DNA of 64,000 nucleotides from an uncultured Dehalococcoidaceae bacterium (GCA_964414675.1 CAYPYF010000003.1:11696-75695); one strand, 5' to 3'. Shown: positions 47,383-63,865, counted from the stretch's first letter. A program made the numbers and translations. The notes: a model not told the origin generated them from the letters alone.

Positions 47383-48876
47383 CTACGCGAGCCAGGCGCG
47401 CAGCCGCTCGACCGAGCCCGGGTGGCGCACGAGCGCCTGGTGCGAGACCGCGTCCGCGGGCTGGAAGACGTGGCGGTCCTGGATCGGGAAGTTCTTGCTG
47501 CCCTCGACCTCGTACACGCTGGCGGTGGGTACCATCAGGTCGTTCTTTCCACGCAGGATCAGGTCCTGGAGCGTGTCCGCGGCGTACGAGGCAAGTCCAC
47601 TGTCGGGCGCCGGCTCGAAGTCCGCGGCCAGCGCCCGATACGTCGCCTCGGCCTTCGGCGCGCCGTTCAGCGCCTTGAGGAACGCGCTGTCGGGCGCCAT
47701 CGCGGTCAGGCCCGGGAGGCCGCCTGCCGCGCCGACCGCGAGTTGCTTCACCACCGTGATCACCGTAGCCAGCACGTCCGACGCGCCCGCGTCCGGGAAC
47801 AGGTTGGCGATCGTCGTCGCCGTGTCGATGAGGTCCCCGAGGTGCTTCGGGTCAGCGAGGCGCGTGCCCGCATTCGGCGTGCCGAGGAACACGACGCGGT
47901 TCACGCGTACGCTCCCCGCCCCATCACTGCCGCCCGCGACGCCCTCGATCGTCGGCGGCTGCTCCGCCAGTACACGCGCCACCAGTCCCCCTCGAGAGTG
48001 CGCAATGACATCGAGGTCGAGCGTGACGCCGGCCGGTGCCTGCCGGAGCAACCACTCTGCATTCTCGCTCGGGTCCGCGGAGAGCGTCGGGTGGTCGAGC
48101 GCGATCACGCGACCCTCGTACCGTTCGTGGAGCCACTGGACGAAGTCCGGCGGGAGCGCACCGAACGCCGAGTGCGTCCGGCCGAGCGGCCCGTGGATCA
48201 GAAGCAGCGCGCGTCCCGCCGCGAGGCCTGCCCACGCCCCTGCCTCGATCGGTGTGACCTCGGACGAGGTGTAGTCGTCGGGCGTGAAGGTGCGCAGGCG
48301 GTACGGGCGCTTCGAGGCCTCCCAGCGGGACGCCAGCGCGTCACCCACCCGTCCCGCGATCGGATCGAGCCGCGGAAACACCAGCACCTTCAACACCCGG
48401 ATCGCGGCGGCGCCGAGGAGTCCCCGCGTCTCCGCCGGCCCCGCTGGAGGCGGGACATGGCGCGGCACCAGGTAGGTGCGCGACGCCCCGCCCCGTGTGG
48501 CCTCACCCGGTGCGCCAGCAGCCGCGATGCTCCACGATGCGACTCCCGACTCATCGACGGCGAGCAGCACTTGCTCCCAGTCAGGCCCGGGATCCGGGAC
48601 GGTGATCTCGATGGCGGGCTGTCCGAGGGCGGTGCTCCGCGTCACCCCGGCCCCGACCGGCACCTCGCGCGCCCCGACGATCTCGATCGTCTCCTGCGTC
48701 TGCATCGACTCGCCGGCGAGCACCGACTCGAGGACATCGCTCTCGCTGCTGGTGGAGCGCGTCCCGCCCGGACCGGCAGCACGCATCGTCACGCTTCCGG
48801 CCAGGCCCGGCGTGCGCAGGGTGGTACGTCCGATCTGCAGCGGCGTCCCGTTCGAGATCAGGTCAGGCATCGTCAA
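47383..48876 (-). CDS. PGAP1-like/DUF676 alpha/beta hydrolase (putative lipase/esterase) with roughly 200-aa N-terminal extension of unknown function
   Basis: Nucleophile elbow AHSRGGLVARV resembles the GHSMGG motif of PGAP1-like lipases. No signal peptide. It overlaps the upstream CHAT gene by 14 nt. Confidence 0.55.
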   Translation of the reverse strand: MTMPDLISNGTPLQIGRTTLRTPGLAGSVTMRAAGPGGTRSTSSESDVLESVLAGESMQTQETIEIVGAREVPVGAGVTRSTALGQPAIEITVPDPGPDWEQVLLAVDESGVASWSIAAAGAPGEATRGGASRTYLVPRHVPPPAGPAETRGLLGAAAIRVLKVLVFPRLDPIAGRVGDALASRWEASKRPYRLRTFTPDDYTSSEVTPIEAGAWAGLAAGRALLLIHGPLGRTHSAFGALPPDFVQWLHERYEGRVIALDHPTLSADPSENAEWLLRQAPAGVTLDLDVIAHSRGGLVARVLAEQPPTIEGVAGGSDGAGSVRVNRVVFLGTPNAGTRLADPKHLGDLIDTATTIANLFPDAGASDVLATVITVVKQLAVGAAGGLPGLTAMAPDSAFLKALNGAPKAEATYRALAADFEPAPDSGLASYAADTLQDLILRGKNDLMVPTASVYEVEGSKNFPIQDRHVFQPADAVSHQALVRHPGSVERLRAWLA

Positions 48877-51538
48877 TCCCTCCGTTCCTCTTCAGGCGCA
48901 AGGATGGGTGTCCATAGAAGAGGTACGCGAGGCTCGTCGCTGAGACGACATCCACGCCGTCCCCGAATGCCCCACGTTCACGCCTGAGGATCTCGGCAGG
49001 CGGGACGCCGGCGAAGCTCTGCTCGTAGAACCGCAGCGCGATCTCGTGGGCGACCGTGTCCTTGATCGACCACAGCGGGGCCAGCACGCCGGCCGCGCCC
49101 GAGAACAGGAACGCCTCGGCCATGCCCGCATAGTCGCCCAGGATGCGCTGGGCGCTGCCCACCTGGCAGGCGTTCAGGAACACGAACGGGGCTCGGGTGA
49201 ACGTGTGGCCGCGGATCTGCAGCGGATCGATCGTCTGCCCATCGGCGAGCACGAGGCCATGGAGCGTCGAGTTCGGGTCGTAGATCCCGTGCATCGCGAA
49301 GTGCAGCAGCTCCGCCGCCGGCTCACCGCCGAGGCAGGACAGCACGTCCGTCGCCAGTGCGTTGACCGCGACCGCGCCGTATCGCTCCTGGAGCGCCTCC
49401 GCCTCCGCCTCGGCCTCCAGAAGAGGGCTCCAGCCCGGCAGCGCGTACTGACCGCTGATCACCGCGATCGACGAGATCACCACCTCCGCCGGCGGCGGCA
49501 GCTTCGGACGGCGCGTACCCAGCACCCAGCGTCCCACGCACGTTTGCGCGCCGAGGAAGGGCGGCGCTTGCGGGTCGAGCCTGGGCTCCACGGTGGCGAG
49601 CTCCCACGGGACGTACGGCTCCTCCGACAGCAGGAAGATCGTCGGTGCGCGCCCTTCCGCACGGGCGTGGGCCGCGACCGAATCGAGCATCGACCAGAAC
49701 TGCGGTGGCAGTTGCTCGGCGACGGTGTGTCCAACCCCGAGGAGGTACGAGGCGAGGCCCGGCGTACCCTCGCGCGAGCCGACGCCGTCGACGAGCTGAC
49801 GCGCGAACTGGCCCGGCGCATCGCCGATGTCCGTCACCTCCAGCGCCCCGGGCGGCAGCGCCACATGCGGCGAGGTCATCGTCCAGCGGAGGCGGCCCCG
49901 CGACTCCTCGTCCTCCTCGATGACGACGGTCAGGTCCGCCACCGTGCGCTGCTGCGGGATCGCCACCATGCCGCGCTCGCCCTGCGCGGGTTCGTCCGCG
50001 GCGTCAAGGTCCGCCTCGGTCGCGACGGTCGTCACGTACCGCTTCGCGTAGCCGATCACAGCCCCCTCGAGGACGAAGAGCGCGCGGATGCTGCGGACAT
50101 CCGGGCCTTCGCCACGCAGCGCCAGCGGCACCAGCCGCACGTCCACCGTCGGGAAGCGCTGCCCCTCCGAGATCGTCAGGGAGCGGCGGAGTGCTGCTCC
50201 ATCGCTGACGACGAAGCCCGGCGTGTCCAGCTCGACGAGGAGTTCGTACGACTCGACGGCCGGCGAAGGCAGCTCAAACGCCTCGCCGGTCACGCCCGTG
50301 ACCTGCTCGGGTGACAGCCCGACCTCGAGTGTGAACTCTCGTCCCACGACGACCACCGGCGGGCAGTCCAGTAGCCCGTGCGCGCTGTACGTCGCCTCGC
50401 GTGACTCGCCCATGCCCGCGCTGGCGCCGGGCATGGGCGCGAGGGATGGCGTCGCACCGTTCGGCGTTACGGTTCCCACCGAGGTGGGGACGCCTGGCGT
50501 CGTCGTCGTCGGGGCTGGCGCTGGGGTGGAGACTGGCGCTGGCTGCGGTGCCGGCACGGGAGCAGACGGCGGCGTCGAGGATGGCGGGAGGGCGGTCGGT
50601 GCCGGGGCCTCGGGCGCATTGGCCCCACCACCATTCGGCGATGCCTCATCCCGGATGTCCTCGAGCCCGGGAGCCGATCCATGCCCGGCGGTCCGCCTCC
50701 GTCCGAGGAGTCCCGCGCCGGCGTTCACCACCGCGCCGATGCCCACGGGCGGAGTGCTCCAGCGCGCCCACGAGTTCCATGTGAGCGGCTCCCAGCCGAA
50801 CTGCTGGGCCAACACGCACCCGGAGAGCCCCACCATCAGGCCGCACAGCACCGCCATCATGATCCCGAACACCAGCCCGCGGCCAGCGTTCAGCACGCGC
50901 AACGCGATGAACAGCATGCCGGCGATGCCGGCGACCCCCACGAGCGCCGCGATCGCCCCGACTGGCGTCGTCAGTGGGTGAGCGCCGCCGACCTTCACCC
51001 ACCCGCTGATCGGCTCGCAGTCACCTGCGCTCACGACCACCCGGTACAGCCCGATGACCTGGAGGTGATCCCCGACGCGGATCGGCGGCTCGGCCACCCA
51101 TCGCCCATCCCGCGCCTCGAAGGACACGACATCCGTCGAGATCGGCCCGACAGACACGGTGACGGTCCCCGGAACCTTGGACGTACGGCCCACGCCCTGG
51201 ATCTCGAAGGCGACGGCCAGGCTGTCGTCCGCACGGATCGGGAGCGCGTTGTCGTAGTCCCCGAACGTATCGAGGGGGACGCCATCGATCGAGGCCTGGC
51301 ATTGCCACGGCGCACCCTGGGCGACCGCCTCGTGCGGGGCGGGAAGGGCCAGGGAGGCGAGGACCGCGCCAGCCAGTACGAAGGCCAGGGCGACGACCGG
51401 GGTGAGGCGGCGCACCACTCCGAGCACCGCGTCGGGCGCCCGGTGAGGCACAGGCGACGCAGGCGGCACTAGCCAGCGCATCAGTCGCTCCTCAGCGGGG
51501 CGCCCAGCGGCCGATCTGCCACGGCGGGGCGTACGCAT
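48863..51538 (-). CDS. Membrane-anchored CHAT-domain (caspase-like) protease: signal peptide, about 130-aa extracytoplasmic domain, two TM helices, Pro/Thr-rich linker, middle domain, C-terminal CHAT
   Basis: C-terminal LHFAMHG...FVFLNACQVGS carries the CHAT His/Cys dyad. N-terminal hydrophobic segments and a PAPTALPPSSTPPSAPVPAPQPAP linker are present. A possible alternative start is at 51481. Confidence 0.65.
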   Translation of the reverse strand: MRTPRRGRSAAGRPAEERLMRWLVPPASPVPHRAPDAVLGVVRRLTPVVALAFVLAGAVLASLALPAPHEAVAQGAPWQCQASIDGVPLDTFGDYDNALPIRADDSLAVAFEIQGVGRTSKVPGTVTVSVGPISTDVVSFEARDGRWVAEPPIRVGDHLQVIGLYRVVVSAGDCEPISGWVKVGGAHPLTTPVGAIAALVGVAGIAGMLFIALRVLNAGRGLVFGIMMAVLCGLMVGLSGCVLAQQFGWEPLTWNSWARWSTPPVGIGAVVNAGAGLLGRRRTAGHGSAPGLEDIRDEASPNGGGANAPEAPAPTALPPSSTPPSAPVPAPQPAPVSTPAPAPTTTTPGVPTSVGTVTPNGATPSLAPMPGASAGMGESREATYSAHGLLDCPPVVVVGREFTLEVGLSPEQVTGVTGEAFELPSPAVESYELLVELDTPGFVVSDGAALRRSLTISEGQRFPTVDVRLVPLALRGEGPDVRSIRALFVLEGAVIGYAKRYVTTVATEADLDAADEPAQGERGMVAIPQQRTVADLTVVIEEDEESRGRLRWTMTSPHVALPPGALEVTDIGDAPGQFARQLVDGVGSREGTPGLASYLLGVGHTVAEQLPPQFWSMLDSVAAHARAEGRAPTIFLLSEEPYVPWELATVEPRLDPQAPPFLGAQTCVGRWVLGTRRPKLPPPAEVVISSIAVISGQYALPGWSPLLEAEAEAEALQERYGAVAVNALATDVLSCLGGEPAAELLHFAMHGIYDPNSTLHGLVLADGQTIDPLQIRGHTFTRAPFVFLNACQVGSAQRILGDYAGMAEAFLFSGAAGVLAPLWSIKDTVAHEIALRFYEQSFAGVPPAEILRRERGAFGDGVDVVSATSLAYLFYGHPSLRLKRNGGIDDA

Positions 51539-51539
51539 G

Positions 51540-52493
51540 TCAGCGGGGGATCACCAGGATCTGGCCCACCCGGATCACATTGATGTCCACGATCTGGTTC
51601 GCTGCCGCGATTGCCGCGACGGTGACGCCGAATCGCACCGCGATGGACCCGAGGGTGTCGCGCGGGCGCACCTCGTAGTGCTGTCCGGGCACGGTGAGTA
51701 CCTGGCCGGTCTCGATGAGGTCCGGGTTCGCGTCCACCAGTGCCGGGAGCGCGACGCCCAGGCGCTGCGCGACCTCCACCAGCCGGTCGCCTGCCTGTAC
51801 GGTGTACTGGCTGATCGAGGTCGCAGGCGCCTCCACCTCCCGCGTTCCGATCGTGGTCGCAGTGACCGTGGCGCGGTCAATCGTCGAACTGCGTTCGCCC
51901 TCGACCCCGGCGAGCACGAACGATGCGGCGACGGTCCCCTTTTCGACGCGATCCCCCCGGACGGCGAGCGCCGTGGAGCCGAAGCCCTCCAGGTGGAGGT
52001 GGGAGTGGCAGGCGCAGCTGGAGTGATACTCGTGTCGCCGAGGATCCCCGGCCCCGTGCTGCTGGCCGCATCGCCCCGTGGGCCAGTGCTGGGGCTCCGC
52101 CGGGCCGAGCGCCCCGATCTGCACGCGCCCGGCTCCCAGCACGGATCCTGGCCCCACCAGGACGGGGTCGAGGTGGCCGTAGAGGATGCGCAGGCCGGTC
52201 TCGATCCAGCGGTCCGAGCCCTCGCGGCGCTGCAATGTCAACTGCACCACCAGTCCGCCTTCCTCGATCCGCCCGCTCCGGCAGGCCGGACGTACTGACT
52301 CGACGACCGCGCGCACCGGCGGGCCGTCGGTGCGCGCCTCGAAGAACACCGGTGTACCCCGGCTGTCCGCGAGCACGTCCATGTCGCACGACCGGTTGCC
52401 GCCGTAGGGACGGTGGTGCCCATGCGAGGACGAGGTCGTCACTACCGCCGGGATGTCGAAGGGAGAAAGGATCGAGAGTGTCGGCATGTTCAA
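51540..52493 (-). CDS. M23 (LytM-type) metallopeptidase with two C-terminal LysM domains; no obvious signal peptide
   Basis: YGHL...HLHLEG M23 motifs. Two LysM repeats (YTVQAGDRLVEVAQRLGV and YEVRPRDTLGSIAVRFGV). Confidence 0.7.
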   Translation of the reverse strand: MNMPTLSILSPFDIPAVVTTSSSHGHHRPYGGNRSCDMDVLADSRGTPVFFEARTDGPPVRAVVESVRPACRSGRIEEGGLVVQLTLQRREGSDRWIETGLRILYGHLDPVLVGPGSVLGAGRVQIGALGPAEPQHWPTGRCGQQHGAGDPRRHEYHSSCACHSHLHLEGFGSTALAVRGDRVEKGTVAASFVLAGVEGERSSTIDRATVTATTIGTREVEAPATSISQYTVQAGDRLVEVAQRLGVALPALVDANPDLIETGQVLTVPGQHYEVRPRDTLGSIAVRFGVTVAAIAAANQIVDINVIRVGQILVIPR

Positions 52494-52601
52494 CCCCTAT
52501 CGGTGCTGTGGATCGGGCTTGCGGGTGCGCGCGGTTCCGTTCAGCGCACAGGCCGCGCCCGGTCGCCTAGACTCGCCCCGGGCGGCGCGAGACGAGGCAA
52601 C

Positions 52602-53000
52602 ATGACCGAGACTCCGGCCGTGACTCGGCCGCCGAGGCTGTCCGAGGCGACGATTCAGTCGCTGCTCACGTACGTCGACGAGGAGTCCCTGCGCACCACG
52701 AGGCCTCGCACGTCGGCGCCATGGACCTGGGCGCCTCGGACGCTGCGCGTCGGGGCCGTCACCCTGGGCCGCGATATCTGCTTTCGCCCCGGCGCGTTCC
52801 GCGAAGCGGACGTGCGAGGCCTCGCGCTGATCGCGCACGAGTGCACGCATGTCCGGCAGTACCGCGAACTCGGCGCGGCGCGATTCCTGCTCCGCTATCT
52901 CTGGGGGGCGATCCGCGTGCGTTTCGTTCATGATCTCCATCCGCTCGAACTCGAACCGCAGGCGGTGCAGGTCCGTGCCCGCACCAGCCTCACCCTCTGA
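52602..53000 (+). CDS. DUF4157-like zincin-type putative metallopeptidase domain protein
   Basis: IAHECTHVRQY matches the HExxHxxQ signature of DUF4157. Divergently transcribed from the CHAT operon. Confidence 0.5.
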   Translation: MTETPAVTRPPRLSEATIQSLLTYVDEESLRTTRPRTSAPWTWAPRTLRVGAVTLGRDICFRPGAFREADVRGLALIAHECTHVRQYRELGAARFLLRYLWGAIRVRFVHDLHPLELEPQAVQVRARTSLTL

Positions 53001-53016: not shown

Positions 53017-54048
53017 TTAGTCGTCCAGCTCCCGCAGGATCAGCGGGAAGACATCCTCGGACGCCCGTTCGCCCATGAAGATGTCCAGGTGGCCGTACCC
53101 CGGGATCACGTGCAGCGACGAGGCGATGCCCTGCGACTGGAGGTAGTAGTGCGTCCGCGCCTGCGAGGCAGGCAGGAAGCACCGGTTCTGCTCGCCGGCG
53201 ATCAGCGCGAAGCGCGCGTCCGTCCGAGGGCGCTCTGCGACGAACGAGTCCGGGAGCCCCTCCACCTTGCCGGTGGAGACCAGCGCGCCCGCGCGGACGC
53301 TGGACAGCATCTGCTCGAAGAACGTGCGCGGCACCGCCGCGAACTCGTTCGTCAGCCAGTCATGTGTCGCGTCGTTCAGGTTCTCGTGGCGCCAGAGCGT
53401 CGGGAACCCGACGCCGTACGTGAACGAGGCCCAGCGGCAGACGTTGTTTCGGCACTCGTGATGCGTGGCCATGACCATGGCGTGCATGGCCTTCTGCTTC
53501 AGCCCGGGCTGGCGCTGTCCCCACTGGGGATCGAGGTACATCAGCCAGCGCCGGCTCAACGGGAGCATCATGCGGATCTTCAGCCGCGCGACGGACGGCA
53601 ACACCGGATGCAGCGACACCGCGTTGCTCACGATCGTCCGCACCTGCGGGACCAGCCCGGCAACCGCCGACATCATGAAGGAGGTGGATCCCTGGCAGTG
53701 GATCACCGCCTGCATCGAGTCCGTCCCCGTCTCACGGACGATCGTCTCGATCGCACTCGGATGGTCGTATCGCGCGGCCTGGTCGAGATCCCACAGGTTC
53801 GGCGCCACATCGATGCTCGCGCGCCAGTTCTCGAGCCACACGTCGTAGCCCGCCTCGACGAGGGCGTCGACGAGCGTCTGCCGGATCGGTGCGCGAAAGA
53901 TCTCCGCGCGCACACCGGCGCCATGCACCAGCACCACCGGCCCGCGCGTCGGCTCCGTGTCGCCGCGCACGTTGATCAGCGTGTTCTGCAACCCGTCGCC
54001 CGCCGTGTAGGGCACCACGCGGTCGTGGGTCATCGATGATGTGGTCAT
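53017..54048 (-). CDS. Alpha/beta hydrolase (putative lipase/esterase)
   Basis: Oxyanion-hole VLVHGAG and nucleophile elbow HCQGS. Confidence 0.65.
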   Translation of the reverse strand: MTTSSMTHDRVVPYTAGDGLQNTLINVRGDTEPTRGPVVLVHGAGVRAEIFRAPIRQTLVDALVEAGYDVWLENWRASIDVAPNLWDLDQAARYDHPSAIETIVRETGTDSMQAVIHCQGSTSFMMSAVAGLVPQVRTIVSNAVSLHPVLPSVARLKIRMMLPLSRRWLMYLDPQWGQRQPGLKQKAMHAMVMATHHECRNNVCRWASFTYGVGFPTLWRHENLNDATHDWLTNEFAAVPRTFFEQMLSSVRAGALVSTGKVEGLPDSFVAERPRTDARFALIAGEQNRCFLPASQARTHYYLQSQGIASSLHVIPGYGHLDIFMGERASEDVFPLILRELDD

Positions 54049-55208
54049 CGTCCGCGGGTCGCCTTCGCCCGGCCGCGCTCCAGCAGCTCCATCGCTTCGT
54101 CCGCGACGCGCTCCACGAGGTTCTCCTCGTGCTTCTTCTCAAGCTTGCACGTCTCCATCCACCGCAGCGGCTCGCGCCAGCGGAGGTCACGGGACGAGGT
54201 GCTTGCCCACGGCCCGATGACCCCGACACTGCCCAGCAGCCGTGGGCGCGTCGAACCCCAGAACCCGCGGTACCGCATCCACCAGAGGTCCGAGTCGGGT
54301 GTCGGATCGCCCTCGATCATCTCGATGACCTCGGGATGGACGCGGACACCCACCTTCTCGCTCGGCGCGGTCGTGTCAAAGGCCGGGTCGGCGGGGGGGT
54401 TGTCGCGGAACAGGCGGATGCCCGGCACGCGCTGGAGCCACTTGATGAAGACGTTGGCGATCCGCCGCGCGTAGATCACGAAGAACAGCGCGGCCGGCAG
54501 CCTCCCGGCGCTCAGCTCTCCGATGAGCGGATGCCCTCCGGAGGCGAACCGGAAGTACCCGGCGTGGGACCCGCGCGCCACGTAGACCAGCGGGCTCTCA
54601 CCCACCCGCGGAACGTCCTCCCACCTCCGTCGCACGCCGCCGTGGTGGTTGGAGTACGCGACCTCCACCGGCCGGTCATCCGTGCCGAGGGAGATCGAGA
54701 CCATCTCCCAGTCGCCCTCGTGGTGGTTCAGGAAGTCGTTGTAGATGTACAGGTACCAGTACTGGAGCACCTTCCCCTGCGGCGTGGCCACCTCGCGCGC
54801 GTAGGTCACGCAGCGGAATGGCGTGGCCTCGGATTCGGGCGTGCTCAGGTACCGCTTGTTCACCTCCCACGCCTCCGAGGGGCGTTGAGAAGCGATCTCA
54901 CAGACGTCGAGTTCCCACGCCGTGCTCTGCTCCGGCCGAGTCACGCCGATGAACGTCCGCGTGGCGAGTAGGCCGTCCGGTGTCAGCCGCCGCGATGAGT
55001 CACCACGGAAGCGACTGAGGATGCCGGCAACGAAGTCGTAGTTCTCCGGACAGTCACGACGGACTGCACGGTCGATAAAGAAGTCGACTGTGCAGGGGTG
55101 GTAGTCGCCCCAACCCTGTCGAGGACGGAATCCTCCGGGCCGGTCCCGTGAGGGATCCTGGGGGTACATAACCAGCGTGGGGTTATAGCGAGATAGGAGA
55201 GCGGACAT
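54045..55208 (-). CDS. Hypothetical protein; weak resemblance to Vps62/DUF946-type proteins
   Basis: Long ORF with NHHEGDWEMV. Start overlaps the upstream hydrolase stop. Family assignment is unsure. Confidence 0.35.
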   Translation of the reverse strand: MSALLSRYNPTLVMYPQDPSRDRPGGFRPRQGWGDYHPCTVDFFIDRAVRRDCPENYDFVAGILSRFRGDSSRRLTPDGLLATRTFIGVTRPEQSTAWELDVCEIASQRPSEAWEVNKRYLSTPESEATPFRCVTYAREVATPQGKVLQYWYLYIYNDFLNHHEGDWEMVSISLGTDDRPVEVAYSNHHGGVRRRWEDVPRVGESPLVYVARGSHAGYFRFASGGHPLIGELSAGRLPAALFFVIYARRIANVFIKWLQRVPGIRLFRDNPPADPAFDTTAPSEKVGVRVHPEVIEMIEGDPTPDSDLWWMRYRGFWGSTRPRLLGSVGVIGPWASTSSRDLRWREPLRWMETCKLEKKHEENLVERVADEAMELLERGRAKATRGR

Positions 55209-60986: not shown

Positions 60987-61063
60987 TGGCGCCCTCCGGG
61001 AGGACTCGAACCTCGGACCAGCGGATGAGAAGGCCGCTGCTCTATCCCCTGAGCTACGAGGGC
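60987..61063 (-). pseudogene. Degenerate tRNA-Arg(TCT)-like copy (77 nt; extra C disrupts T/acceptor stems; pyrimidine at position 37)
   Basis: About 95% identical to the intact tRNA at 63790-63865, including 8 nt beyond the 5' end. Its cloverleaf is imperfect. Confidence 0.55.
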
Positions 61064-61259: not shown

Positions 61260-63695
61260 CTAGTCCGAAGCAACGACTCCCGTCCCGAGGGCGAGTCCGA
61301 ATGGGTTGTCCTGGATCCACGCCTCGAACTGCGCGGCCGGCATCGGTCGGGCGAAGTAGTACCCCTGCGCGACATCGCATCCGAGCTCGGTCAGCAGGTC
61401 CGCGACCTCCTGAGTCTCGACGCCCTCGGCGATCGACCTCACGCCGAGGCGGCTCGCCATCGCGATCGTGCTTTCGACGATGTCGCGAGATCGCGGGTTC
61501 GACATCAGGTCCCGCACGAACGACTGATCGATCTTGATCGTCGAGATCGGCAGGCGGTGGAGGTACACGAACGGTGAGTAGCCCGTCCCGAAGTCGTCGA
61601 TGGAGAGGTCGAGGCCAGCGCGACGGAGGTTCTCGCAGACGGAGACCGCCTCATCCATGTCGGAGAGGATCGCCGTTTCGGTGATCTCGATGTCCAGTGC
61701 CCCCTCCGGCAGTGCCCACTCCGCGACGATGTCCGTGATGCGCGCCGCGAGCTGTGTGTCCTCGAAGTCGGCTGCCGACACGTTCACGCCGATCGGCACG
61801 GGGCGCCCAGCCTCCTGCCAGGTGTGCGCCTGCTGGCTGGCCGTCTTGACGGCCCACGTCGTGAGGTGCCGGACGTAGCCGGTCTGCTCCGCCAGCCCGA
61901 TGAACTGTGCCGGCGGGACGAACGTGCCGTCCTCCCGCTGCCAGCGCATGAGCGCTTCGACCCCGACGATCCGGTTTCGCTGGAGGTCGACCTGCGGTTG
62001 GTAGTAGAACTCCAGGTCGCCATCGCTGAGGGCGCCCCGAAGCGCGGTCAGCAGTTTCAACTGGTCCGCCCGAGGTTCATCGCGGGCGGCGTCGTACATC
62101 GCCAACCCGTGATGCCCGAGCTTCGTCCGGCGGAGCGCGAGGCTGGCCCGCCTCGCGAGCGCCGCCGCAGTCGTGCCGTTCTCGGGGTAGCGCGCGAGGC
62201 TCGCACGGCTGCCCAGGTAGACCGGCTCCCCGTTCATCTGGAACGGCCGCTCGAATGCGTGTTCCAGCGTCGTCGAGACATCGAACGCGCTCCCGAACGA
62301 TGCGTCATCCTCGATCGTCGGGGTCAGCAGCGCCATGAACTCGTCGCCACCCGTGCGCCCTACCAGCGTCTCGCTGCCGAAGACCTCGACGAGTCGCGGG
62401 CCAATCTGGCGGAGGAGCTCGTCGCCGCCGTCGAACCCGAACGTGGCGTTGACCGCGCCGAACTGTCGGAGTTGGACCTCCAGGAGGAGTAGTGGAGTCT
62501 CCGGCGACTGCTGGATGCGCTCATCAATGAGGCGCTCCATCTCCATCCGGTTCGGGAGCGACGTCAGCATGTCCGTCGTCGCGTTTCGCCGCAGCGTGAC
62601 GTGTGCCTCGCCGACCGCGTCCGCCATCGACTCGAAGGCGCCGGCGAGCGACGCCATCTCGCTGCTCGAGGTCCGTGTAAGCCCGACGCGCGCTCCGAAG
62701 TCGCCACTCGAGTACCGCTGCGCCGTGCGCAGGAGTCTCTGCACCGGGTGAAGCACGCTCACCGTGCTGATCCCCCATGACCACGTGAGTCCTACCACGG
62801 TCATCACCCCGAGCACGCCGAGGGCCTGTTGGAAGGTGCGGTTGGCTCCGGCGAGGGCGCGGCTCTTGGGCGAAGTCACCACCACGTATCCCGGGATCGA
62901 ACCGGCGTGGCTGTCCAGCGGGACGACAGCGCCCAGCACCGGTTCCTCCCCCGGCGTCGCGATCTCCAGGACGGAGGGCTTCGTCGTGCGGACCGCGCTG
63001 CCCGACCACGGGAGGAGACCGGCGCCGCCGACAGGCGTCGCGGTTGCCCGTGGCACCTGGAGGAGCACGAACCCGTTTGGGCCCAGGACGGTCGTCTGGA
63101 TGTCGGCGCGGGTACTGAGTGATTCGAAGAGCATCTCGAGCCACGCGAGGTTGACCGAAAGCTGGACCACCCCCACGGGCACCCCGTCACCGTCCAGGAG
63201 CGGCATGGCGAAGAGGGACACCGGCCGGTTCGAGATACGCCCGAACAGGTACCCACTCGATGCGAGGTCGCGCGTCCGGAGTGTCTCCTGGAAGTATGGG
63301 CGGTCGCCGACGAACGCCCCCATCCCGTCGGGGTTCGCCGAGCAGACCACCACCCCGTTCCGCCCGACGACCGCAGTGTTTGAGTACGCGGAATGCGCCG
63401 ACGTCACCCGACGGAGCACCTCGTTACAGGAGTCAGCGCCGAACACGCGCAGCGCCGGGTCGATCGACAGTTCCCGCAGGAGGTCTGCGACGACATCGAT
63501 CAGCTGGTTATGGGTGGTGGCCACGAGGCGCGCCTGCGCCAGGAGGTCGCCTTCCACCTGAGTGATCGCGCTCTCCCGTTCGCTGTTGCTCTTCCAGAGC
63601 AACAGCGCCCCCATCGCAACGATCAGGACGAGGATCATCGTCATCAGTCGCCATCGGATGCCGAACAAGAAGACAGGCACGGAGAACTCCGTCAT
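61260..63695 (-). CDS. Membrane sensor diguanylate cyclase/phosphodiesterase (periplasmic Cache-like domain, HAMP, GGDEF, EAL)
   Basis: GGDEF motif RTGGDEF and EAL motifs (EALMRW, ...DDFGTGYS...). Confidence 0.85.
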   Translation of the reverse strand: MTEFSVPVFLFGIRWRLMTMILVLIVAMGALLLWKSNSERESAITQVEGDLLAQARLVATTHNQLIDVVADLLRELSIDPALRVFGADSCNEVLRRVTSAHSAYSNTAVVGRNGVVVCSANPDGMGAFVGDRPYFQETLRTRDLASSGYLFGRISNRPVSLFAMPLLDGDGVPVGVVQLSVNLAWLEMLFESLSTRADIQTTVLGPNGFVLLQVPRATATPVGGAGLLPWSGSAVRTTKPSVLEIATPGEEPVLGAVVPLDSHAGSIPGYVVVTSPKSRALAGANRTFQQALGVLGVMTVVGLTWSWGISTVSVLHPVQRLLRTAQRYSSGDFGARVGLTRTSSSEMASLAGAFESMADAVGEAHVTLRRNATTDMLTSLPNRMEMERLIDERIQQSPETPLLLLEVQLRQFGAVNATFGFDGGDELLRQIGPRLVEVFGSETLVGRTGGDEFMALLTPTIEDDASFGSAFDVSTTLEHAFERPFQMNGEPVYLGSRASLARYPENGTTAAALARRASLALRRTKLGHHGLAMYDAARDEPRADQLKLLTALRGALSDGDLEFYYQPQVDLQRNRIVGVEALMRWQREDGTFVPPAQFIGLAEQTGYVRHLTTWAVKTASQQAHTWQEAGRPVPIGVNVSAADFEDTQLAARITDIVAEWALPEGALDIEITETAILSDMDEAVSVCENLRRAGLDLSIDDFGTGYSPFVYLHRLPISTIKIDQSFVRDLMSNPRSRDIVESTIAMASRLGVRSIAEGVETQEVADLLTELGCDVAQGYYFARPMPAAQFEAWIQDNPFGLALGTGVVASD

Positions 63696-63789
63696 GACGA
63701 GGGCTTCGTGTCTCGAATATAGCGTCGCTCATGACGATTTGGGCGGCTCGCACATCGCGCATCTCAAGCGGCGCCTGTGAGTGGACGAG

Positions 63790-63865
63790 TGGCGCCCTCG
63801 GGAGGACTCGAACCTCCGACAAGCGGATTAGAAGGCCGCTGCTCTATCCCCTGAGCTACGAGGGC
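63790..63865 (-). tRNA. tRNA-Arg (anticodon TCT)
   Basis: Perfect cloverleaf folded by hand: acceptor GCCCTCG/CGAGGGC, D-arm GCTC/GAGC, anticodon loop CTTCTAA, T-arm GGAGG-TTCGAGT-CCTCC, discriminator G. The 3' CCA is encoded in the genome. Confidence 0.85.

Follow-up and report, generated by a model that had tools for sequence, protein, structure and literature searches.

Three minus-strand genes form one tightly packed unit

We analysed a window of 64,000 nucleotides (nt) from an uncultured Dehalococcoidaceae bacterium (GCA_964414675.1 CAYPYF010000003.1:11696-75695; GC content 70%), in which three consecutive minus-strand genes encode an M23/LytM-fold protein with two LysM domains (gene 1), a membrane-anchored CHAT protease (gene 2) and a lipase-fold alpha/beta hydrolase of the family DUF7379 (gene 3). 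A first-pass annotation, made from the sequence alone, had singled out this trio as a candidate undescribed cell-death or conflict system, with the genes packed head to tail and separated by a 1-nt gap and a 14-nt overlap. Taken as longest open reading frames (ORFs), they run from 52493 to 51540 (317 amino acids, aa), from 51538 to 48863 (891 aa) and from 48876 to 47383 (497 aa), and the spacing is as had been described, with the gap between genes 1 and 2 and the overlap between genes 2 and 3. GC content at third codon positions (GC3) is 0.86-0.87 in all three, which in a window of 70% GC indicates that the three ORFs are real genes.

Comparison with homologues revises these boundaries. The start of gene 1 moves to the ATG at 52487 (MPTLSILSPF; 315 aa), giving a protein identical to a database entry (P0009), and that of gene 3 moves to the ATG at 48870 (495 aa), where the product is likewise identical to a database protein (P0032). 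With the revised start, the stop of the CHAT gene and the start of gene 3 share 8 nt, ATGCCTGA, and the same junction is found in relatives. In relatives of the CHAT protein the start corresponds to Met20 (ATG 51481), so that genes 1 and 2 are spaced by either 1 or 58 nt. Whichever CHAT start applies, the three genes form one tightly packed unit (Table 1). A scan of the locus for sigma-70 promoters and intrinsic terminators, in which the sigma-70 consensus may not suit this high-GC host, returned none above shuffled expectation.

Table 1. Genes, domains and motifs of the locus, with coordinates counted from the first nucleotide of the window.
Feature	Coordinates	Strand	Basis
Gene 1, M23/LytM-fold protein with two LysM domains, signal-less, 315 aa	51540..52487	-	ORF, homologues, P0009, AlphaFold2 model; longest-ORF start TTG 52493
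M23/LytM-fold catalytic domain of gene 1, residues 1-195	51903..52487	-	candidate metal/catalytic residues H25, D37, H105, H163, H165
Two LysM peptidoglycan-binding domains of gene 1	51681-51809 and 51546-51677 (span 51546..51809)	-	Pfam LysM, PDB LysM matches
Gene 2, membrane-anchored CHAT (caspase-fold) protease, 891 aa	48863..51538	-	ORF, Pfam CHAT, alignment with relatives
First hydrophobic segment of gene 2, residues 47-67, then A-V-A-Q	51338..51400	-	hydropathy; A-x-A-like motif kept in 5 relatives
Predicted extracytoplasmic domain of gene 2, residues ~74-190 (~120 aa), invariant C80 and C174	50969..51319	-	position between hydrophobic segments
Membrane-helix cluster of gene 2, residues 191-280, three hydrophobic segments, the last followed by RRR	50699..50968	-	hydropathy and alignment
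Pro/Ala/Thr-rich low-complexity linker of gene 2, residues 281-382	50393..50698	-	sequence; length and sequence vary among relatives
Conserved middle domain of gene 2, residues 383-640	49619..50392	-	common to soluble TCAD7-CHAT relatives; alignment
CHAT protease domain of gene 2, residues 641-891	48866..49618	-	His750 codon 49289-49291 and Cys791 codon 49166-49168, verified
Gene 3, DUF7379 lipase-fold alpha/beta hydrolase, putative zymogen, 495 aa	47383..48870	-	Pfam PF24096, P0032, junction sequence
Three T-R-[S/G] motifs of gene 3: R78-S79 (48637-48639), R126-G127 (48493-48495), R149-G150 (48424-48426)	48424..48639	-	alignment of 119 proteins
Alpha/beta-hydrolase core of gene 3, residues 190-495	47386..48303	-	Ser292 (H-S-R-G-G) 47995-47997, Asp444 47539-47541, His477 47440-47442
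Divergent intergenic region 5' of gene 1, 114 nt, presumed promoter region	52488..52601	.	sequence

Gene 2 is a CHAT protease with a complete dyad and a predicted outside domain

The protein encoded by gene 2 matches Pfam CHAT (PF12770) over residues 702-856 with an E-value of 2e-19. Among 39 aligned partner proteins, H746, H750 and G751 (within HFAMHG) and N789, A790 and C791 (within LNACQ) are invariant, and the invariance of His750 and Cys791 in these homologues, together with the profile match, confirms the caspase-type His/Cys dyad that the first-pass annotation had assigned from the sequence alone. The closest CHAT protein of solved structure, judged by sequence, is DdvA (PDB 8rot, E 2e-10). 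The middle domain that precedes the protease is matched from hidden Markov model (HMM) position ~270 onwards in ~60 loci and corresponds to no Pfam family. By Pfam, gene 2 is without TCAD7 ("ternary complex associated domain 7"), NTPase or TPR domains.

The N-terminal part of the protein is dominated by hydrophobic segments. From its sequence, the first of these is probably a signal-peptide-like or membrane-anchor element, and the predicted extracytoplasmic domain that lies between it and the helix cluster is a candidate sensor. Within the cluster, two helices are strong by hydropathy, and the third (residues 263-279) was judged by hand from the alignment. We predict that the CHAT end of the protein is cytoplasmic: this placement agrees with the positive-inside rule, the partner proteins carry no export signals, and CHAT relatives that are soluble have the same hydrolase as their partner.

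Gene 3 is a DUF7379 hydrolase with conserved arginine motifs

Gene 3 had been called a PGAP1-like hydrolase, a label that gives way to a different family: it matches DUF7379 (PF24096) with an E-value of 1e-52 and 179 bits against a cut-off of 33, covering the full 191-position model, whereas the match to PGAP1-like (PF07819) is sub-threshold (13.2 bits against a cut-off of 24.3, E 0.076) and reflects generic lipase-elbow similarity only. DUF7379 is a large family, with ~400 matches or more in one search. The catalytic residues Ser292, Asp444 and His477 are invariant across 40 sequences. An AlphaFold2 model of the protein (mean predicted local distance difference test, pLDDT, 77) comprises a beta domain at the N-terminus (residues 1-136), then a disordered loop, one long helix (151-187) and the alpha/beta-hydrolase core (190-495); its best structural match is a lipase in inhibited propeptide form, followed by secreted lipases, palmitoyl-protein thioesterases, PlaB and RavL.

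The three T-R-[S/G] motifs, which are conserved throughout the family, are located between this beta domain and the core. Across 119 DUF7379 proteins, the arginine is kept in 118 at R78-S79 (next residue Ser in 105), in 114 at R126-G127 (next residue Gly in 109) and in 118 at R149-G150 (next residue Gly in 106). R126 and R149 fall in segments of pLDDT below 50 (residues 120-127 and 144-150), and the ten-residue block that holds the R78 loop averages 67. The motifs are mostly retained in proteins that fuse a Peptidase_C14 caspase to DUF7379 (see below). The only DUF7379 gene that we found without a caspase-fold neighbour (L009 7668-9362, Yinghuangia soli NZ_JAKFHA010000005.1; the upstream gene is anthrone-oxygenase-like) has lost all three arginines and kept the catalytic triad; this is a single observation, and it is the pattern expected if the motifs are caspase cut sites. 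We regard the T-R-[S/G] motifs, on their conservation and position, as candidate sites of cleavage by the CHAT protease.

A tblastn search with the hydrolase found no match in phage genomes, and in plasmids only partial matches, inside CHAT fusion proteins. On the Ruegeria pomeroyi DSS-3 megaplasmid (L099 5365-12169, NC_006569.1, SPO_RS20450-20460), a 966-aa "CHAT domain-containing protein" includes a region 30% identical to the core of gene 3, and is followed by a gene for a 986-aa AAA ATPase and a hypothetical gene. Shorter matches (residues 225-303) occur on Paracoccus plasmids, where they also lie inside "CHAT domain-containing proteins", and on a Burkholderia replicon.

Gene 1 belongs to a rare M23-like family

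The first-pass annotation had described gene 1 as an M23 peptidase with two LysM domains and no signal peptide. Both LysM copies are clear in Pfam (PF01476; E 9e-22, 77 bits against a cut-off of 20.9) and follow a disordered linker (residues 196-223), and no signal peptide or membrane helix was seen on gene 1 or gene 3 when the sequences were read by eye, with no dedicated predictor. The M23 part of the description stands by another route than Pfam: the 195-residue N-domain has no Peptidase_M23 (PF01551) match in Pfam or NCBIfam, and neither the single sequence of gene 1 nor an N-domain profile found an M23 chain in PDB (NCBIfam gave sub-threshold LysM-region matches only for gene 1, and none for genes 2 and 3). 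In the AlphaFold2 model (mean pLDDT 80), the N-domain adopts the LytM (duplicated-hybrid-motif) fold, with SpoIIQ, EnvC and DipM among the top fold matches, and an exhaustive profile search of 1.84 billion representatives recovered just 81 clusters, 22 of the 69 scanned being Pfam Peptidase_M23 (best E 7e-20). By fold and by this chain of remote homology, gene 1 belongs to the M23 superfamily and fold. Its own family is tiny, with 22 proteins in a k-mer-seeded search.

Members share the motif HH-x-PYGG-x(2,3)-S-x-D-x-D ... YAHL ... C-x(2)-H-S-H-x-H-x-E, within which D37, H105, H163 and H165 are invariant. Where the HxxxD motif would have its histidine stands an invariant Ser33; a pair of histidines, H24-H25, is likewise invariant and is placed 12 residues ahead of D37. 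M23A enzymes, LasA among them, have a comparably long His-Asp spacing. When P0202, a remote relative, was searched against PDB to map the first zinc ligand, only unrelated repeats matched.

Homologues of gene 1 also occur away from CHAT and DUF7379. In three loci (L016 5935-7939, L017 5950-8017 and L102 5938-7966), distant homologues (52-56% identity in the M23-like N-domain) share a 14-nt overlap with the gene upstream, which encodes a Tle1-like phospholipase (PF09994, E 4e-85), and a DedA/VTT membrane-protein gene lies close on the 3' side, immediately so in L016 and L017 and after an acetyltransferase gene in L102. These loci look like a second "lipase + M23/LysM" cassette, without a protease. 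Other homologues (L012 6413-6979, L100 6450-6989, L101 3-506) are preceded at 11-21 nt by a gene for a conserved protein of ~180 aa with no Pfam or PHROG match, the two full copies of which are 62% identical and carry a D-C-D-G-F-A motif. A lipase-type enzyme, DUF7379 or Tle1-like, is thus the partner in two of the three contexts of the family, the third being the ~180-aa gene, and the coupling of distant homologues to the Tle1-like gene indicates that this wall hydrolase recurrently partners a lipase.

Caspase linkage is family-wide, and the trio marks a membrane-anchored clade

In a search of 5.8 billion proteins, the CHAT protein had only five close homologues, the nearest named ones from a "Dehalococcoidia" metagenome-assembled genome (MAG); a DUF7379 gene follows three of the four that were placed on contigs. 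For a wider census we collected 6 genome and 80 metagenome loci by means of the DUF7379 protein and scanned them with custom HMMs and Pfam, which left 74 informative non-redundant loci. In 65 of these, a CHAT of the same subfamily ends within ~130 nt upstream on the same strand, and in a further 8 a Peptidase_C14 caspase is fused to DUF7379 or encoded just upstream. A caspase-fold protease is therefore adjacent or fused in 73 of the 74, the exception being L009. TCAD7 is present on 16 of the 39 partner CHATs, and the same-strand neighbours of DUF7379 loci are enriched in further CHAT and C14 proteases, AAA_16 (STAND-type) proteins, WD40/TPR proteins and EAD1.

Membrane helices and a predicted outside domain are confined to the CHATs of the window, L001, L002, L011 and L013, the other partners scanned being soluble. 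In four of these five membrane-type loci the M23/LysM gene lies directly upstream, each time in the order M23/LysM, CHAT, DUF7379, and among DUF7379 loci it was found with this membrane-anchored clade alone. The first-pass annotation had left open whether the three genes are conserved together: besides the window, three other independent contigs retain the trio, set among flanking genes other than those of the window. Spacing is at most 58 nt throughout (window, L002, L011, L013-15), at identities of 51-70% for CHAT and 60-77% for the M23 protein (M23 domain, full length). The flanking genes are abhydrolase and GNAT genes in the window, patatin and ADC on one side and COX15 on the other in L002, and DUF421 in both L011 and L013, with pectate lyase on the other side in L011 and, in the same place in L013, a gene without a Pfam match. 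No relation links the flanks of the window, those of L002 and those of L011/L013, and the upstream genes of L011 recur in L013.

The census also turned up variants of the module. In L031, L039, L040/L041, L043, L050, L055 and L089, single ORFs of 1009-1242 codons hold an N-terminal Peptidase_C14 and a complete C-terminal DUF7379, apparent protease-zymogen fusions, two of which (L055 and L031) also carry DUF4384. Second CHAT paralogues adjoin the CHAT-DUF7379 pair in L008 (next to a TPR protein), L033, L044, L052, L060, L068, L075 and L083. In L003 (2061-6454), a CHAT relative with 48% identity in the core has a Peptidase_C14 gene before it and, after it, a gene for a 370-aa protein without a Pfam match; we rejected this protein as a DUF7379 member (hhalign probability 0.2), and proteases of this clade may use it as an alternative effector. 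The census of upstream neighbours includes one locus with a multi-LysM protein (E 2e-60).

Surroundings of the operon

Genes of GNAT, M20 peptidase, methyltransferase, abhydrolase and eCIS_core families neighbour the operon. The eCIS_core gene, missed both by the first-pass annotation and by a GC3-based gene filter, encodes 132 aa at 52602-53000 on the plus strand, divergent from gene 1 at a distance of 114 nt, and matches Pfam eCIS_core (PF13699, formerly DUF4157) at E 8e-11 with an HECTH (HExxH) motif; it was not seen adjoining the trio in L002, L011 or L013. A 147-aa minus-strand ORF upstream of gene 1 (52497-52940) was rejected as a gene, being Arg-rich, without a Pfam match or a counterpart in L002, and overlapping the better plus-strand gene. 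Beyond the eCIS_core gene, 53017-55208 on the minus strand holds a weak alpha/beta-hydrolase gene (Abhydrolase_1, E 2e-4, sub-threshold) and a 387-aa gene without a Pfam or NCBIfam match. These are the "other lipid-active genes" of the first-pass annotation, and we found no operon link for them.

The same annotation had placed the trio in an accessory block beside a tRNA, which the surroundings do not bear out, and we rejected a genomic island at the tRNA as well: the nearest tRNA is 8.5 kb away and GC content is flat across the region. Two tRNA-Arg(TCT) genes, at 60991-61063 and 63790-63865 on the minus strand, differ at few positions and have flanks that cannot be aligned beyond the tRNAs, and a dCache-HAMP-GGDEF-EAL gene (61260-63728) lies between them.

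A possible outside-sensing, caspase-gated lysis cassette

The pairing at the core of this locus has a history. Kaur, Burroughs, Iyer and Aravind predicted a caspase/alpha-beta-hydrolase pairing in vWA-MoxR-VMAP "ternary" conflict systems in 2020 (PMC7159879), and a 2021 paper by the same authors lists the hydrolase as a membrane-lipid effector. In a 2025 preprint, Evans et al. report that LcCaspase cuts LcHydrolase at Arg73 and Arg117, both R↓G and conserved in 161 homologues, and that co-expressed LcHydrolase fragments kill E. coli, which makes the hydrolase a caspase-activated zymogen (PMC12642450). With its core predicted in 2020 and tested in 2025, the system is not the undescribed one that the first-pass annotation had supposed. 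The companion suggestion, that a caspase-like protease acts here as a switch for envelope-damaging effectors, has fared well, given the caspase linkage across the DUF7379 family, its conflict-type neighbours and the finding that a representative caspase/hydrolase pair is a protease-activated death effector (PMC12642450). DUF7379 may itself be the family to which LcHydrolase belongs, or it may be a larger relative that follows the same logic.

We lean, if only slightly, towards reading the locus as an outside-sensing, caspase-gated lysis cassette, in which a membrane-anchored caspase/alpha-beta-hydrolase module is extended by a peptidoglycan hydrolase. The CHAT protein would show its domain of ~120 aa outside the cell, and three helices and a flexible linker would join this domain to the cytoplasmic middle domain and CHAT protease. 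An envelope cue, which could be phage attachment, damage to wall or membrane, or a neighbour-derived signal, would activate CHAT, probably via oligomerisation. The protease would then cut the co-translated DUF7379 protein at its T-R↓G/S loops (R126, R149 and perhaps R78), freeing a lipase or esterase activity that would damage the cytoplasmic membrane through a presumed lipid substrate. Since the M23/LysM enzyme carries no export signal, peptidoglycan would be accessible to it only once the membrane is breached, and it would at that point complete lysis, with the lipase in a holin-like role.

A more specific version of this proposal, which we put forward tentatively and consider rather doubtful, is that the extracytoplasmic CHAT sensor detects phage adsorption or envelope injury and thereby sets off a holin-free lysis by two enzymes, the protease-activated lipase first and the signal-less M23/LysM endopeptidase second. 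Death effectors licensed by a protease are increasingly recognised as a recurrent theme in prokaryotic immunity, one that parallels the caspase pathways of animals, and to our knowledge the known sensors of such modules are intracellular (STAND ATPases, vWA-MoxR switches and CRISPR, clustered regularly interspaced short palindromic repeat, complexes). If the proposal is true, outside-in sensing and a peptidoglycan hydrolase in the role of a second, membrane-gated effector would make their first appearance in a protease-effector defence module here, and gene 1 would represent a rare M23 subfamily that always works with a lipase (DUF7379 here, Tle1-like elsewhere). The clade would then be evidence that the caspase/hydrolase output can be driven by a sensor that faces the envelope, and that a wall hydrolase can serve as an additional effector, admitted to its target by the first. 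That M23/LysM proteins pair with lipases of two families unrelated to each other points to a general "lipase plus lysin" route to autolysis without a holin, and the T-R↓G/S motifs are directly testable candidate cleavage sites across the DUF7379 family.

Several observations weigh against reading the locus as a lysis cassette. The third helix of gene 2 is weak, and if it is no helix the CHAT domain would lie outside the cell, as it does in DdvA. The SpoIIQ, EnvC and DipM domains among the top fold matches of gene 1 are non-catalytic LytM domains, and with Ser33 in place of the canonical HxxxD histidine the catalytic competence of gene 1 is uncertain. For the hydrolase, the substrate of LcHydrolase is not named even in the tested system (PMC12642450), and by its published description LcHydrolase has ~300 aa and is cut within its core, whereas DUF7379 proteins have ~490 aa and carry their motifs N-terminal to the core. 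PADLOC, which the first-pass annotation had proposed as a check, makes no system call here: in PADLOC-DB 2.0 the only match is a marginal, partial one of the CHAT protein to BovA of Borvo (E 0.0026, 14 bits, ~75 residues of the CHAT core), and genes 1 and 3 have none. Finally, the M23/LysM gene is missing from 70 of the 74 DUF7379 loci, and in the "Dehalococcoidia" MAG GCA_009379925.1 the CHAT-DUF7379 pair (L001) and an M23/LysM homologue (L012) reside on different contigs.

These last two observations would be expected if the CHAT-DUF7379 pair alone were functional and the M23/LysM gene an unrelated cell-wall gene captured in one lineage, as would the presence of the M23/LysM family beside a Tle1-like or a ~180-aa gene. 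We nevertheless think such a capture unlikely, as gene order and close spacing have been kept in the window, L002, L011 and L013-15 despite diverged proteins and flanks that are unrelated among the window, L002 and L011/L013 (with those of L011 and L013 partly shared), as the M23/LysM gene partners only the membrane-anchored CHAT clade, and as the two partners known for this rare wall hydrolase each belong to the lipase type. Housekeeping or developmental remodelling of the envelope, whether in cell separation or in filament or spore-like differentiation, would have the LytM-type protein regulate or hydrolyse septal wall and the protease and lipase process the envelope. It could account for the fold matches to the wall-remodelling regulators SpoIIQ, EnvC and DipM, for the missing canonical first zinc ligand and for a membrane-anchored protease with an outside domain, and is made quite improbable by the lethality of the tested caspase/hydrolase pair (PMC12642450), by the ties of DUF7379 to caspases in conflict-type neighbourhoods throughout the family, by rarity (81 clusters for the M23-like domain, five close CHAT homologues), by a genomic context that is not conserved and by a wall hydrolase without an export signal.

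The lipase-fold and M23/LysM enzymes might instead be exported toxins directed at the envelopes of competitors, processed or released at the membrane by CHAT. Several features would be expected of such an interbacterial weapon: M23 peptidases and lipases of the Tle1 type are well-known antibacterial effectors, a Tle1-like gene accompanies relatives of gene 1, and an eCIS_core gene lies divergently upstream. Its probability is nonetheless low in our view: we saw no signal peptide, and beside the trio no gene that could be recognised as part of a secretion system or as conferring immunity, the eCIS_core gene was not seen next to the trio in L002, L011 or L013, and soluble members of the family pair a cytoplasmic CHAT with the same hydrolase, some hydrolases being fused to a caspase, which fits an intracellular zymogen and not a secreted toxin. 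Compared with a caspase-gated lysis cassette, all three alternatives account less well for the caspase linkage, for the missing export signals and for a cassette that is rare and mobile.

Comparison with known systems

Like the caspase/hydrolase module of Kaur et al. and Evans et al., the locus places a caspase-fold Cys protease next to a lipase-fold Ser-hydrolase, its relatives carry TCAD7 and sit among CHAT, C14, STAND and EAD1 genes, and its conserved Arg-Gly/Ser motifs appear, by sequence, to match the mapped R↓G sites. It differs in that neither the protein nor the scanned neighbours include TCAD7, VMAP, MoxR, vWA, STAND or a WD40 sensor, and in that the protease here has a signal-like segment, a predicted outside domain and three predicted membrane helices, with an M23/LysM gene in addition. 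A vWA-MoxR ternary system at this locus was rejected, as no such genes lie beside the operon and none are among the top 25 families listed in either neighbour census.

Protease-licensed membrane attack by the product of an adjacent effector gene is also the logic of bacterial gasdermin systems, where the membrane-damaging agent is a pore former, unlike the candidate enzyme here; Pfam scans of the three proteins and their neighbours, the divergent eCIS_core gene excepted, found no gasdermin family. In the type III-E Craspase (gRAMP with the TPR-CHAT protein Csx29, which cleaves Csx30), a CHAT protease likewise acts as a switch that cuts a partner, the input there being RNA and here, as we propose, an envelope signal. 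The 64-kb window contains no repeat array, and no CRISPR-associated family was found among the genes scanned between 41.8 and 57.1 kb, nor a TPR family in the trio or the neighbouring genes scanned.

DdvA of Myxococcus xanthus is a transmembrane anti-sigma factor with a periplasmic TPR-CHAT and an incomplete dyad, which releases an extracytoplasmic function (ECF) sigma factor and controls an island of CRISPR and CBASS (cyclic-oligonucleotide-based antiphage signalling system) genes (PMC11506125). It is a precedent for CHAT proteins that span the membrane and act in defence; gene 2 would resemble it in linking an envelope signal to a defence response, and differs in its complete dyad, its predicted cytoplasmic CHAT, its hydrolase partner and the lack of an adjacent sigma-factor gene. 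With phage holin-endolysin cassettes, in whose endolysins M23 and LysM domains are common, the locus shares a signal-less LysM peptidoglycan hydrolase that would need a membrane lesion made by a co-encoded partner; no holin is encoded here, the proposed membrane breaker being a protease-activated lipase, and the trio matches PHROGs via its LysM domains only. The BlEst2 lipase of Bacillus licheniformis in its propeptide form (PDB 6wpx), which is secreted, has C-terminal inhibitory domains and is 18% identical to gene 3, offers an analogy of logic and not of family membership.

In the searchable literature we found neither the membrane-bound, outside-sensor form of the protease nor the added M23/LysM gene, and no paper on DUF7379 or TCAD7 by name. 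The core of protease and hydrolase is known, having been predicted in 2020 and tested in 2025; what this rare clade adds to it is a predicted outside-facing membrane sensor and a wall hydrolase.

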